Positions 6,211 to 9,945 are shown, counted from the first letter of the stretch. The stretch: 64,000 nucleotides of DNA from Escherichia coli (GCF_003790525.1 NZ_CP033635.1); one strand, 5' to 3'. Notes: generated by a model not told the origin, from the letters alone. A program made the numbers and translations.

Positions 6211-9200
6211 GTGAAAATTAAAAAGATCAAAAAACTTTTTAAAAATCCCAAATCATTTATTGCGGACTCTCGTTATTTTAATTTTATAAATAGTAAAAAA
6301 AAAGTTGATAATAAATTAGAAATAGGATTTATTGTAATTTCTCAGAACCATGATTTATCAAGATACTCAATAGATAGTATAATACAGGCAAACAATGCAG
6401 CATCAAAATCTTTCCCTTATATCGTTATACATGACTACGATGAAAAATGTGGTACTGACACTATACATACTATAGTTAAAAAACTTGATACACCATACAT
6501 AAAAATCCTCTTTGATGGAGAAAAAATACACAGGGATTTTATTATTAAATTTTCAAATCACAATATAGATCCTAACAATAATGATATAATATTACATGCA
6601 TTTTCTACAAATTCAAATGTAAAACAGGTAGATGGTTTATTATCTAGTTCTAAAGATATATCATTCAATAATCAGTTGTGGAAAGAACATGCGGTTTTGT
6701 TATTTTCTACGCTAATAATTAAATCTGACTTAATATTAAATACTAGCAAAATACTTCATCACGGTGGAAGAATTATAGATGCGCTAAATGTGCTTCGTAT
6801 TTTTAGAGAATGTGAGGAAATGGACTATGTTTTATATTTGAATGATATGTATTCTTTCAATAGTGCCTCGCTGAAACTGGAGGAAAAGATAAAAGTATTG
6901 ATGGAGGATGAGTTATTATTAAAAATAACATTTGCAGAAATCTTTGAACATGTAAGCTTGGGGGGGAGGAATGTTTTTTATAGGAAGACGTTGTTTTATT
7001 TCATACACAATATAGTTTTGTTCTTGCTAAAAAACAAAAAAACAGATGAGCGCCTCCATGAGGAAACAAAAACATTAATTAAAACCCAGTTAACAGATAT
7101 AATAAGAATACTTGGAGTTGATATACTAAAGGGCTTTTCTGCAAAAAATTATAATCATGTTCACAAAATTGGATATTTAAAACTAATAGGAGTGAAAGCA
7201 GATAAAGATCTATGTTATATTGAAGATATAAATAGCGAGAATAAAATTGTAAAAGTCAAAATAGCATCACAAACAGATGCCTACCCACAGATATTACTTA
7301 ATAAAGAGTATTTAATTCCTTTTACAGCCAAGGTTAAAGACTTAACAATTTTTGACGTTAATTTCTCACACGAGATATATTCTTGGTTCTCTTATGATGC
7401 AATATCACAAGAACTTGTCATAAAAAAAGAAAATAACACTGAAATCCTCTCTGGTGGAAAACATTATAAAAAAATAAAAATAGAAAACATAATAAAAAAT
7501 TTTGAAAGAAGAGATTTAATTAACAGTTCATTACCTTTAATGTCAAAAATATTAAGATATTTACACACTGTATCATTTTTTCAGAAGAAATTTCTAAATG
7601 CATGGGTTTTTATAGATAATGAAATAAGAGCAGATGATAATGCGGAGCATTTCTATCGATATATATCCCAAAAACATCCTGATATAAATATATACTTTCT
7701 TTTGAGCAAAAAGTCTGTAGATTGGGAACGACTAAAAAAAGCTGGTTTTAAATTAGTTAAATTTGGTGGCTTTTACCATCGCTTGCTACTGCTAAACGCT
7801 CGTTATCTGCTTTCCTCCCACGCTAATCCTGCAATTGTCAACTATTTACCTAAAAAATATTATGCAGATCTTATGAAATACAAGTTTGTATTCCTTCAGC
7901 ACGGTATAACGAAGGATGACCAATCAGAATGGTTAAATAGCCGCAAAATAGATTATTTGGTGACGGCTTCAAAATTTGAACATGATGATATTTCTCGAAG
8001 AGGTAGGTATAGATATACTACAAAAGAAGTCGTACTTACTGGTTTTCCTCGGTTTGATAATTTATCAAATGTTGATACAAGAAATAAACAAATATTAATT
8101 ATGCCAACATGGAGAAAAGAACTTGCAGGAGAATTGATGAAAAAAAGCAGTAAAAGAATAAAAAATAAAGATTTTGCTAATTCATTATTCTGTAAAATGT
8201 GGGGAGGAGTTTTAAGATCTGAGTCTTTATATAATGCTTATAAAAAGAAGGGGTATACAATAATATTTTACCCTCACCCTAATCTTGCTGATTACATTAG
8301 TGACTTAAATATTCCAGATTACGTTAAAATTGGTAGTTTAGAGAATGAAAGTATCCAGAGTATTTTCAAAAAAACTAATTTGCTTATTACGGATTATTCT
8401 TCGGTGGCGTTTGATATAGCGTATATGAAAACGCCAGTTATTTATTTTCAGTTCGATAGCGACACTTTTTTTTCAAATCATTCATATTCAAAAGGATATT
8501 TTGATTATAATGATTTTGGGTTTGGGCCTGTTGTAAAAAATATAAATGACTTATCTGAACAACTAAATCTAATAGTTGATAATAACTGCAATCTTACTGA
8601 TTTTTATATGTCACGTATAAAGTCATTTTTCCCATTTTCGGATAATAATAACTCATCTAGATTATATAAAGTTTTGAGTGTTGGAGTAAATAAAAAACAT
8701 GATTTGGAAACATTGTATAATTATTTACTAATGTTCACTTCAATTATCGATATTGAAGGTATAGCGCTAATGTTAAATAACTATAAGCAACAACTACAAA
8801 AAATATTATATAAAGAGGGTTGTGATATATGTGTGGTTATAAATTGCTTATATTTGATTGCTAATGTAATTGATGAGCCTAAATTAAATTTAGCCATAAG
8901 AAATTTACTAGATGGCGTGGAATTAACTAACGGGGCACTTAAAAAAAATCATTCTTTTGGAATGAATAATGGTGTCGATAGCCATATATCATACATTGAA
9001 GACCAAATAGAAACATTGTCAACAATTATTGATACTAATAGTAAACTGTTAAGATATCTAATCGATCTTCACGCTTTTTTGACATTCTTTAAGAATGAAG
9101 AATATGTTCAAGCAGTATTTTCATTTAAACATTTGCAAAATAATCTTAAACTTAGAATAGATGTGCGTATCGTTTATATATATGTTCTCTCGTTACTGAG

Positions 9201-9945
9201 AGATAGGCAAATCAAGGAGGCAATGGATATAGCAAAGAAACTATCACTAAGTGATGAAAATAAAGAAGAACTATTAATTGAATTAGTAAGATTTGATAAT
9301 GTAAAGAACATAAAATCGATTGATATTGATTTTCTTTTGCCTTCAAAGAATGATGAGACGCTATTAAAATTATATTATAATGTAAAACAAAACATCCCGG
9401 AAAACATCGTAAAGAGATATTCTCATATTGATGATATGCCCTATTTTGTTTTTGAGTTTTATTTAGATGAGTTATTGTCAAAAAAAGAATTTGAAGGCTA
9501 TTACGAGTACTTAAACAATTCAAAAAACAAAGTGCAATATCTTGACAATAACATTAATAAATATAAATACATCAAGTGTATCTTTAATATACTCGGCCCT
9601 AATGCTTTTTATGAGGAATTATGTGAAGTATCTAAAGAGGATTGTCTACATAAATCATTTAATTATTTGTTTTTAAATAATATAACTTCTGATGCGGGTT
9701 TTTTTCATAAAATAATAAAGACTTTAATAACTTTTGGGTTACATAATTTTTCTTGTTTGGAAGTTTACAATTACATACTGTACTTTTATAAGCAAGAGCG
9801 GCCTGATCTGGCTAAAGATGTCATGTATATCTTTTCTATTAAACAAAATGAGCGATTTTATAATGATACCAAAAACTGGAAAAGTCATGATGACTATGAC
9901 ACATTAGTTAAAGCGGTATCTGAGCTTGAAAATTCGATGAAATAA
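6211..9945 (+). CDS. large multidomain capsule polymerase candidate with TagF-like glycerol/ribitol-phosphate transferase domain
   Basis: 1244 aa, GTG start; central region with TagF/TarF-type signatures (IMPTWRKE, ITDYSSVAFD, HPN); long N- and C-terminal extensions. Confidence 0.75.
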   Translation: MKIKKIKKLFKNPKSFIADSRYFNFINSKKKVDNKLEIGFIVISQNHDLSRYSIDSIIQANNAASKSFPYIVIHDYDEKCGTDTIHTIVKKLDTPYIKILFDGEKIHRDFIIKFSNHNIDPNNNDIILHAFSTNSNVKQVDGLLSSSKDISFNNQLWKEHAVLLFSTLIIKSDLILNTSKILHHGGRIIDALNVLRIFRECEEMDYVLYLNDMYSFNSASLKLEEKIKVLMEDELLLKITFAEIFEHVSLGGRNVFYRKTLFYFIHNIVLFLLKNKKTDERLHEETKTLIKTQLTDIIRILGVDILKGFSAKNYNHVHKIGYLKLIGVKADKDLCYIEDINSENKIVKVKIASQTDAYPQILLNKEYLIPFTAKVKDLTIFDVNFSHEIYSWFSYDAISQELVIKKENNTEILSGGKHYKKIKIENIIKNFERRDLINSSLPLMSKILRYLHTVSFFQKKFLNAWVFIDNEIRADDNAEHFYRYISQKHPDINIYFLLSKKSVDWERLKKAGFKLVKFGGFYHRLLLLNARYLLSSHANPAIVNYLPKKYYADLMKYKFVFLQHGITKDDQSEWLNSRKIDYLVTASKFEHDDISRRGRYRYTTKEVVLTGFPRFDNLSNVDTRNKQILIMPTWRKELAGELMKKSSKRIKNKDFANSLFCKMWGGVLRSESLYNAYKKKGYTIIFYPHPNLADYISDLNIPDYVKIGSLENESIQSIFKKTNLLITDYSSVAFDIAYMKTPVIYFQFDSDTFFSNHSYSKGYFDYNDFGFGPVVKNINDLSEQLNLIVDNNCNLTDFYMSRIKSFFPFSDNNNSSRLYKVLSVGVNKKHDLETLYNYLLMFTSIIDIEGIALMLNNYKQQLQKILYKEGCDICVVINCLYLIANVIDEPKLNLAIRNLLDGVELTNGALKKNHSFGMNNGVDSHISYIEDQIETLSTIIDTNSKLLRYLIDLHAFLTFFKNEEYVQAVFSFKHLQNNLKLRIDVRIVYIYVLSLLRDRQIKEAMDIAKKLSLSDENKEELLIELVRFDNVKNIKSIDIDFLLPSKNDETLLKLYYNVKQNIPENIVKRYSHIDDMPYFVFEFYLDELLSKKEFEGYYEYLNNSKNKVQYLDNNINKYKYIKCIFNILGPNAFYEELCEVSKEDCLHKSFNYLFLNNITSDAGFFHKIIKTLITFGLHNFSCLEVYNYILYFYKQERPDLAKDVMYIFSIKQNERFYNDTKNWKSHDDYDTLVKAVSELENSMK

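Follow-up and report, generated by a model that had tools for sequence, protein, structure and literature searches.

We analysed a 64,000-nucleotide stretch of Escherichia coli DNA (GCF_003790525.1, NZ_CP033635.1; hereafter the window, with positions counted from its first letter) and describe here the gene at positions 6211–9945 of the plus strand, which encodes a TagF-like protein of 1244 residues. Taken together, the evidence makes it quite probable that the product of this gene is the polymerase for K52, a group 2 capsule of E. coli, and that the enzyme links galactose-1-phosphate units to one another. An initial annotation, made from the sequence alone, had predicted a teichoic-acid-like capsule with a sugar-polyol-phosphate repeat such as that reported for E. 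coli K2. A TagF-like phosphotransferase-type polymerase and a phosphodiester backbone are retained from that prediction whereas the polyol is not, on account of the QHG form of the first catalytic motif, the missing CDP-polyol gene and the identity of the locus as K52.

The window holds a kps locus for a group 2 capsule of the ABC-transporter type. The polymerase gene is housed in a low-GC island (28–33% GC as against ~55% in the flanks) with the gsp/yghD type II secretion genes on one side and kpsS, kpsC, kpsU, kpsD and kpsE on the other, a position that identifies the locus as an E. coli group 2 kps cluster. Within the island kpsM and kpsT bracket the gene, which belongs to the serotype-specific region 2 and is upstream of kpsS/C/U/D/E. 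The window is 100% identical in nucleotide sequence to E. coli CUVET17-1418 (dog urine) and 99.1% identical to strains of sequence type 69 (ST69). The products of the ST69 locus, of 330, 1248, 829, 248, 123 and 525 residues, equal K52_13, K52_12, K52_10, K52_9, K52_8 and K52_7 in length and order, the reference lengths being those given in the supplement to a 2026 capsule catalogue (K52_7, 525; K52_8, 123; K52_9, 248; K52_10, 829; K52_12, 1248; K52_13, 330; PMC13171606). Because gene order and product lengths equal those of the K52 reference, we treat the locus as the E. coli K52 kps cluster. K52 is the commonest K locus in clonal complex 69 (CC69) and the top-ranked E. coli K type for estimated invasive potential (PMC13171598). 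The window differs from the K52/ST69 locus by 0.9% of nucleotides, by a four-residue indel in the polymerase and by a different start call for the gene of 833 residues here and 829 there. The polymerase and its ST69 allele are identical at 1230 of 1248 residues; the differences, 14 substitutions and the indel, leave the catalytic motifs untouched. The indel involves the four-residue unit KQNV, of which the ST69 allele has a tandem duplicate and the window allele one copy fewer (window 9800–9830, residue ~1210), giving 1244 rather than 1248 residues.

Hofmann, Jann and Jann are said to have described the K52 repeat in 1985 as ->3)-alpha-D-Galp-(1-phosphate->, carrying beta-D-fructofuranose on O-2 and O-acetyl/O-propionyl groups, and the polymer is reportedly a sugar-1-phosphate without glycerol or ribitol. 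If that description is accurate, the K52 capsule probably lacks the phosphodiester-linked polyol predicted initially. K11 is the other fructose-phosphate K antigen. The title of Hofmann et al. 1985 calls the K52 antigen 'fructose-containing', and the passage of another paper that cites the work places it among phosphodiester-bridged capsular polysaccharides.

The TagF-like core and its catalytic motifs

RefSeq lists an identical coding sequence in the 100% identical genome (WP_033556411.1) under the product name 'CDP-glycerol glycerophosphotransferase family protein'. A Pfam scan covering residues 31–1230 gave a sole match, Glyphos_transf (PF04464; E 7e-41, 140.8 bits, model positions 16–364 of 367), at residues ~464–821, and the TagF-family profile hit anticipated by the initial annotation is thus present. 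Foldseek comparison of the core returned TagF (3l7j, E 1.5e-11), TarL (8va1, 6e-10), Cps3D (8qoy, 3.8e-9) and Bcs3 (8a0c, 2.3e-8). In the AlphaFold2 (AF2) model of residues 441–1244 (pLDDT 85.8), two Rossmann-like halves extend to residue ~825, and the TM-score against 3l7j, normalised to the target, is 0.63. Sequence searches of the PDB, both single-sequence and profile, matched the C-terminal half of TarL alone; TagF, Cps3D and Bcs3 were reached by fold comparison.

Conservation of motifs was judged in 13 full-length relatives of 36–50% identity, from a family that numbers 2420 representatives at E < 1e-30. H564 and H689, the predicted catalytic histidines, are invariant in all 13. The PTWR and DYSSV-FD signatures on which the initial annotation had relied are likewise invariant or nearly so, and the DYSSVAFD stretch aligns with the donor-site region of TarL. 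The combination of TagF-like domain, motifs and neighbouring glycosyltransferase (GT) is beyond chance. TagF of S. epidermidis and TarL of S. aureus share with the window polymerase the fold, the Pfam family and the two catalytic histidines, but they are Gram-positive cell-wall enzymes of 15–19% identity to it that use CDP-polyol donors, read WHG at the first histidine and have neither a GT-A domain nor a helical repeat.

TagF-like capsule polymerases occur in two architectures (Litschko et al. 2018, PMC5974469). Those of the GT-A/TagF-like(/TPR) type, which include Cps1B (1246 residues), Cps12B, CslB and Ccs2, make poly(oligosaccharide phosphate) by hexose-1-phosphate transfer, and those of the TagF-like/GT-B type with an N-terminal TPR, namely Cps3D, Cps7D and the E. 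coli K2 enzyme, make teichoic-acid-like poly(glycosyl-glycerol-phosphate) (PMC5974469). The first catalytic histidine stands in a WHG motif in TagF and the glycerol-phosphate polymerases and in a QHG motif in the hexose-phosphate transferases (Litschko et al. 2024, PMC11666461). The window polymerase reads F-L-Q-H564-G-I-T-K-D-D, and QHG is found in 184 of 198 aligned relatives, WHG in 0 of 198. Cps1B and Cps7D were compared by way of short stretches taken from published mutagenesis primers. Around the first histidine, 11 of 14 positions are equal between LQHGITKDDQSEWL of the window polymerase and LQHGITKDDLSQWF of Cps1B (LQ[H587]GITKDDLSQWF); around the second, where the local residue is H689 in PHPN, 10 of 19 positions are equal between IIFYPHPNLADYISDLNIP and VIFAPHPNIEPYLNEFNIP (VIFAP[H717]PNIEPYLNEFNIP). 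Published mutagenesis found both of these Cps1B histidines, H587 and H717, to be essential. Cps7D, for its part, reads TW[H612]GTP and the E. coli K2 polymerase TWHGTP.

The likeness to Cps1B, from Actinobacillus pleuropneumoniae serotype 1, extends beyond these stretches, with their shared QHGITKDD and PHPN, to overall length, to the order of GT-A domain, TagF-like domain and C-terminal helical repeat, and to a location in region 2 of a capsule locus of the ABC-transporter type. The TagF-like domain of Cps1B transfers alpha-Gal-1-phosphate, the same unit as in the K52 backbone. Two differences set the enzymes apart: Cps1B has an active GT-A domain (D133xD135 is essential) and makes a disaccharide-phosphate repeat, whereas the GT-A motifs are lost in K52-type proteins; and the K52-type polymerase gene is always adjoined by a separate gene for a 330-residue GT-A enzyme. 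Cps1B, CslB and Ccs2 were sought among 177 relatives by peptide matching and cluster names, which yielded uncharacterised relatives only (from Neisseria wadsworthii, Mannheimia varigena and others), and a scan of genome contigs with Cps1B primer-derived DNA gave no match.

These comparisons bear directly on the polyol reading, in which a CDP-polyol-using TagF-like domain together with the 330-residue GT-A enzyme would make a teichoic-acid-like poly(glycosyl-polyol-phosphate) as in K2. That reading has in its favour the name of PF04464, taken from CDP-glycerol glycerophosphotransferases like the RefSeq product name, the fact that the best fold matches (TagF, TarL, Cps3D and Bcs3) are polyol-phosphate polymerases, and the presence in the locus of a 248-residue nucleotidyltransferase-fold protein with weak IspD-like and MobA-like matches. 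Against it stand QHG in place of WHG and several features of the K2 system itself. The K2 polymerase of CFT073, like Cps3D and Cps7D, does resemble the window polymerase in its TagF-like GT-B domain, in having an extensive helical/TPR domain and in belonging to a group 2 capsule system, but all three read WHG, and the K2 enzyme (1266 residues) has an N-terminal TPR, a TarF match (E 5e-50) and C-terminal GT4 matches (residues ~1000–1250), whereas the C-terminus of the window polymerase is all-helical in the AF2 model. BLASTP aligned the K2 and window polymerases over ~230 residues only, at 26% identity, and with the architectures differing as they do the K2-like chemistry predicted initially is not supported. 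In NCBIfam the window polymerase had no match of any kind, the TarF, TarB and TarL models included.

The gene content points the same way. Region 2 of K2 (CFT073) contains a TagD-like glycerol-3-phosphate cytidylyltransferase (TIGR01518, E 2.5e-37), but the window locus is without one, as none of eight region 2/3 proteins matched TIGR01518 or the TarI/TarJ models. Loci of the K2 type further contain two genes, one CpsC-like and one of the XcbB/CpsF (CpsA-like) kind; in CFT073, region 2 also encodes a TPR/nucleotidyltransferase protein and an XcbB/CpsF protein. The 248-residue protein was considered as a TarI-like CDP-ribitol synthase and rejected, since it is closely homologous to an NDP-sugar pyrophosphorylase (PDB 4EVW) and its IspD-like match is marginal (E 7e-4). 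The composition of the K52 antigen, reportedly galactose, fructose and phosphate, also speaks against a polyol. As judged from sequence, then, the polyol-phosphate prediction fails three independent tests besides that of chemistry, and the polymerase most likely belongs to the hexose-phosphate (QHG, Cps1B-like) branch and not to the K2-like branch. The TIGR01518 match in the CFT073 K2 locus is the 131-residue protein at 37441–37836 of that locus sequence; RefSeq names it 'pantoate--beta-alanine ligase', and it is probably a misannotated K2 CDP-glycerol synthase.

Sugars joined by anomeric phosphodiesters, the product class expected here, are also made by the Stealth hexose-1-phosphate transferases (NmA CsaB, NmX CsxA and E. 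coli K51_9), a family unrelated to the window polymerase. A Stealth-type polymerase in the locus was considered and rejected: Pfam scans of the polymerase and of four of its neighbours gave no match to the Stealth conserved regions CR1–CR4, and thus there is no other candidate phosphotransferase. According to the catalogue supplement, the K51 cluster, for a poly-GlcNAc-phosphate capsule, has both the Stealth protein K51_9 and a 1173-residue TagF-like protein, K51_10, which is a relative of the K100 polymerase (PMC13171606).

Domains flanking the core

The large extra domains that the initial annotation had placed around the TagF-like core amount to ~460 residues on the N-terminal and ~410 on the C-terminal side, and their boundaries, left undetermined there, could be mapped with AF2 and Foldseek (Table 1). 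The N-terminal 460 residues were modelled from 44 sequences (pLDDT 88, pTM 0.84). Residues 1–214 share homology with the GT2 domain found in Cps1B-like GT2-TagF relatives (hhalign probability 91.5%, E 8.6e-7), and Foldseek of residues 1–460 found RmlT (8bz6, E 6e-9), TarS (5tz8, 7e-8), TarP and K4CP (2z87, 5e-4). The whole segment, comprising GT-A, linker and beta domains, superposes on full-length TarS and RmlT. TarS, TarP and RmlT thus share with it a GT-A domain, a helical linker and a beta-sandwich (Foldseek E 6e-9 to 3e-6), but, being active GT2 enzymes, they carry a DxD motif, and they are only 9–13% identical to it. Identity to the GT2-TagF relatives is 13–18% over the N-terminal 460 residues, compared with ~35–45% in the TagF-like domain.

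Although the fold is kept, the catalytic motifs of the GT-A domain are lost. SAxYNV, VDDGSxD, NGGQASARN and WVTFIDPDDF are retained in 20–26 of 29 GT2-TagF relatives, depending on the motif, and all four are gone in the K52-type proteins (15/15), which also have a ~30-residue deletion past the VDDGS position. The DPDD column has become xxG[E/D] in every one of the 15, with F-D-G-E in the window polymerase. Published mutagenesis identified D133 and D135 as essential in Cps1B. Most likely, then, to judge from the alignment columns, the domain is a non-catalytic pseudo-glycosyltransferase, and such a loss fits a backbone without a glycosidic bond. The K52-type clade with a degenerate GT-A domain is small, with ~15 representatives that include proteins from Aeromonas, Citrobacter and Enterobacter.

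The basic helix at the N-terminus may mediate association with the membrane or with a complex. The C-terminal helical repeat sits where Cps1B-type polymerases have their TPR (PMC5974469), with no Pfam TPR match in the residues scanned.

Neighbouring genes and setting of the locus

Table 1. Positions of features of the polymerase gene and its surroundings in the window
Feature	Position	Strand	Basis
ops/JUMPStart octamer GGCGGTAG	4283..4290	+	33 nucleotides 5' of the kpsM start
kpsM-type ABC transporter permease	4323..5099	+	NCBIfam KpsM NF050053, E 1.4e-55
Stand-alone 330-residue GT-A glycosyltransferase (K52_13 homologue), GT2-type, intact D-x-D (LLDVDIY)	5199..6191	+	Pfam Glyco_tranf_2_2, E 2.8e-23
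Complete coding sequence, 1244-residue TagF-like capsule polymerase (K52_12 homologue)	6211..9945	+	Uninterrupted open reading frame, GTG start
N-terminal basic helix, residues 1–30 (MKIKKIKKLFKNPKSF..DS)	6211..6300	+	Alignment, conserved across the wider family; predicted helices at residues 3–27
GT-A-fold domain, residues 38–220, catalytic motifs lost	6322..6870	+	hhalign, Foldseek, alignment columns
Helical linker domain, residues 223–325, motifs HNIVLxLLKNKKxDE and NYNH(V/I)HKIGY	6877..7185	+	AF2 block, pLDDT 85–96; motif residues invariant in the K52-type family
Beta-sandwich domain, residues 333–423	7207..7479	+	AF2 strands, pLDDT ~95
TagF-like GT-B phosphotransferase domain, predicted catalytic core (residues ~464–825)	7600..8685	+	PF04464 and Foldseek
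QHG motif Q563-H564-G565, predicted first catalytic histidine (counterpart of TagF H444 and Cps1B H587)	7897..7905	+	Invariant in relatives
PTWR motif, residues 632–635	8104..8115	+	Invariant or nearly so in relatives
PHPN motif, residues 688–691, predicted second catalytic histidine H689 (equivalent to TagF H584, Cps1B H717)	8272..8283	+	H689-P690-N691 invariant
DYSSVAFD motif, residues 728–735	8392..8415	+	D728, S730, S731, V732, A733, F734, D735 invariant
C-terminal all-helical repeat, TPR-like, residues ~832–1244, ~20 helices	8704..9942	+	AF2, pLDDT mostly 80–90; no Pfam TPR match
ABC transporter ATPase of the kpsT type, relocated to region 2	10111..10797	+	ABC ATPase matches
833-residue protein, hexapeptide acyltransferase (residues ~95–250) and ~570-residue domain of unknown function (K52_10 homologue)	11005..13506	+	Domain scans
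Three-gene module: BcbE-like NDP-sugar pyrophosphorylase (248 residues), HAD 'capsule biosynthesis phosphatase' (123 residues), nucleotidyltransferase-like and kinase-like protein (525 residues)	13544..16216	+	
kpsS and kpsC (beta-Kdo linker synthesis), then kpsU, kpsD, kpsE	17790..21084	-	RefSeq annotation of the identical genome

On the plus strand the order runs from ops through kpsM, the 330-residue GT, the polymerase, the kpsT-type ATPase and the genes for the 833-, 248-, 123- and 525-residue proteins to an IS3 remnant, and the capsule locus has no further open reading frames of at least 60 residues outside the listed genes. A position ahead of kpsM is the expected placement of ops for region 3 of a group 2 locus. 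The octamer occurs twice in the window, which is the chance level, and its position alone carries meaning; that position points to one RfaH-dependent transcript that would extend from kpsM over the polymerase gene as far as the 525-residue gene. The kpsT-type ATPase gene is two biosynthesis genes away from kpsM and has a region-2-like GC content (~29%), and its best NCBIfam matches are TagH-type teichoic acid exporters and not the KpsT model. The catalogue counts K52 among the clusters with rearranged kpsM/kpsT (PMC13171606). Between the final region 2 gene and kpsS lies a frameshifted IS3-family transposase pseudogene (window ~16400–17600; 25237–26346 in one comparison locus), which is common to the dog isolate and the ST69 loci and is therefore an old feature of the K52 locus.

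The adjacent GT-A glycosyltransferase, already recognised in the initial annotation, is confirmed by its Pfam match. Its gene lies directly upstream of a polymerase homologue (~1258 residues) in the ABC-transporter capsule loci of Enterobacter sp. NFR05 (8967–13777) and Aeromonas bivalvium (8971–13780) as well. The Enterobacter locus has one further region 2 gene only, for a 300-residue protein with no Pfam match, and the pair of 330-residue GT and TagF-like genes may thus be a minimal polymer-synthesis module. The K116, K7 and K106 clusters also contain homologues of the 330-residue GT. This GT could act in priming or as a transition transferase, or could substitute in trans for the dead GT-A domain of the polymerase.

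The hexapeptide acyltransferase part of the 833-residue protein is a candidate for O-acyl decoration. Its homologue in K116 consists of a 262-residue acyltransferase alone, and A. bivalvium has an 831-residue homologue beside the polymerase gene (13970–16465). The ~570-residue part found no PDB sequence match and only a faint match to DUF7796. In the three-gene module that follows, the 248-residue protein matches PDB 4EVW, a structural-genomics 'NDP-sugar pyrophosphorylase', with E 9.5e-71, and the 123-residue HAD phosphatase matches TIGR01689 with E 9e-60; the call for the 525-residue protein, which had neither a Pfam nor a PDB sequence match, rests on SUPERFAMILY assignments for K52_7. The pair of BcbE-like protein and TIGR01689 phosphatase is also present in the K11 and K112 clusters, and other E. 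coli genomes contain most of the module as a copy at 67% identity. The module would probably supply an activated fructose donor for the side chain and is probably not a CDP-polyol pathway.

Proposed mechanism, alternatives and implications

If the gene does encode the K52 polymerase, the enzyme would dock with the Kps machinery at the cytoplasmic face of the inner membrane, and its TagF-like domain would bind UDP-Gal, a donor suggested by the K52 chemistry and the Cps1B precedent. By analogy with the TagF and Cps1B mutants, H564 of QHG would act as the base that deprotonates O-3 of the terminal galactose; O-3 would then attack the alpha-phosphate of the donor, releasing UMP and adding alpha-Gal-1-phosphate, while H689 of PHPN, as the same mutants suggest, would hold the donor pyrophosphate. 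A ->3)-alpha-Gal-(1-P-> backbone would grow in this way on the beta-Kdo glycolipid made by KpsS and KpsC. The helical repeat is likely to serve in oligomerisation and/or elongation from a primer, as in Cps1B and Cps3D, and linker, beta-sandwich and helical repeat together are probably concerned with oligomerisation, with priming and with attachment to the Kps machinery. Priming and decoration with fructosyl and O-acyl groups would be left to the 330-residue GT, the 833-residue acyltransferase and the pyrophosphorylase/phosphatase/kinase-like trio.

Several considerations weigh against a galactose-1-phosphate polymerase. We know of no enzyme of the K52 sub-type that has been characterised biochemically. 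To our knowledge, the characterised hexose-phosphate TagF-like polymerases all have an active GT-A domain and produce oligosaccharide-phosphate repeats, and a pure hexose-1-phosphate homopolymer, usually a Stealth product, is without precedent that we know of in the TagF-like family. The invariable pairing of the 330-residue GT with the polymerase could mean that the backbone is a disaccharide-phosphate. Finally, our literature search found no explicit statement of the K52 repeat unit; what it gave on the K52 antigen was the title of Hofmann et al. 1985 and the context of a citation of that work.

The pairing underlies the first alternative, that the polymerase and the 330-residue GT-A enzyme form a two-enzyme polymerase whose disaccharide-phosphate backbone is unlike the textbook K52 homopolymer. 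That the pair is kept in Enterobacter and Aeromonas, including a minimal locus, agrees with this, as do the D-x-D motif retained in the GT and the use of GT activity for each repeat by all characterised GT-A/TagF-like polymerases. Yet the K52 reference strain has the same genes, and the catalogue authors find that gene content fits the published structures except for K6 and K16 (PMC13171606). K7 and K106, neither of them a phosphate polymer, moreover have homologues of the GT in their clusters, and a general priming or transition function, or some other role, is more consistent with that distribution. We therefore consider a two-enzyme polymerase unlikely.

Less likely still, and in our view quite improbable, is that the TagF-like enzyme makes a short linker or primer, or adds a phospho-substituent, and that polymerisation falls to another enzyme such as the ~570-residue part of the 833-residue protein. 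TagF-fold transition transferases do exist (CpsA of A. pleuropneumoniae), K51 carries a Stealth protein alongside a TagF-like one, and much of the 833-residue protein is taken up by a domain of unknown function. The size of the window polymerase and its GT-A/TagF/helical-repeat architecture are however those of polymerases such as Cps1B, whereas CpsA is small; in K116 and in the Enterobacter locus the polymerase is kept without the long form of the 833-residue protein; and the locus has no Stealth or other phosphotransferase signature. The polyol-phosphate polymer discussed above, with the QHG motif, the gene content and the K2 comparison all against it, is the least credible of these possibilities and in our view highly improbable.

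Galactose-1-phosphate polymerisation by the window enzyme accordingly remains our preferred reading. A more specific version of it can be put forward, though tentatively and with less confidence than we have in the polymerase assignment: the enzyme could be the first TagF-like protein to make a plain hexose-1-phosphate homopolymer, with the GT-A domain as a fossil scaffold, the 330-residue GT could be the transition transferase that joins the phosphodiester polymer to its beta-Kdo anchor, and the trio could make a new nucleotide-activated fructofuranose donor common to K11 and K52.

The locus and its TagF-like annotation were already known from RefSeq and two 2026 capsule catalogues, and descriptions of the family and its two architectures date from 2018 to 2024. 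New here are the assignment to the hexose-phosphate branch, the loss of GT-A motifs across a small clade, the pairing with a GT-A gene and the domain map. The database name 'CDP-glycerol glycerophosphotransferase' is misleading for a K52-type polymerase. Related enzymes have already been used for enzymatic capsule synthesis for Haemophilus influenzae type b (Hib) and A. pleuropneumoniae, and the choice of substrate, probably UDP-Gal and not a CDP-polyol, matters for any enzymatic synthesis of the K52 antigen for glycoconjugate vaccines and diagnostics. For the family, the K52-type polymerase would provide a natural case of a GT-A domain kept after the loss of its catalytic motifs.

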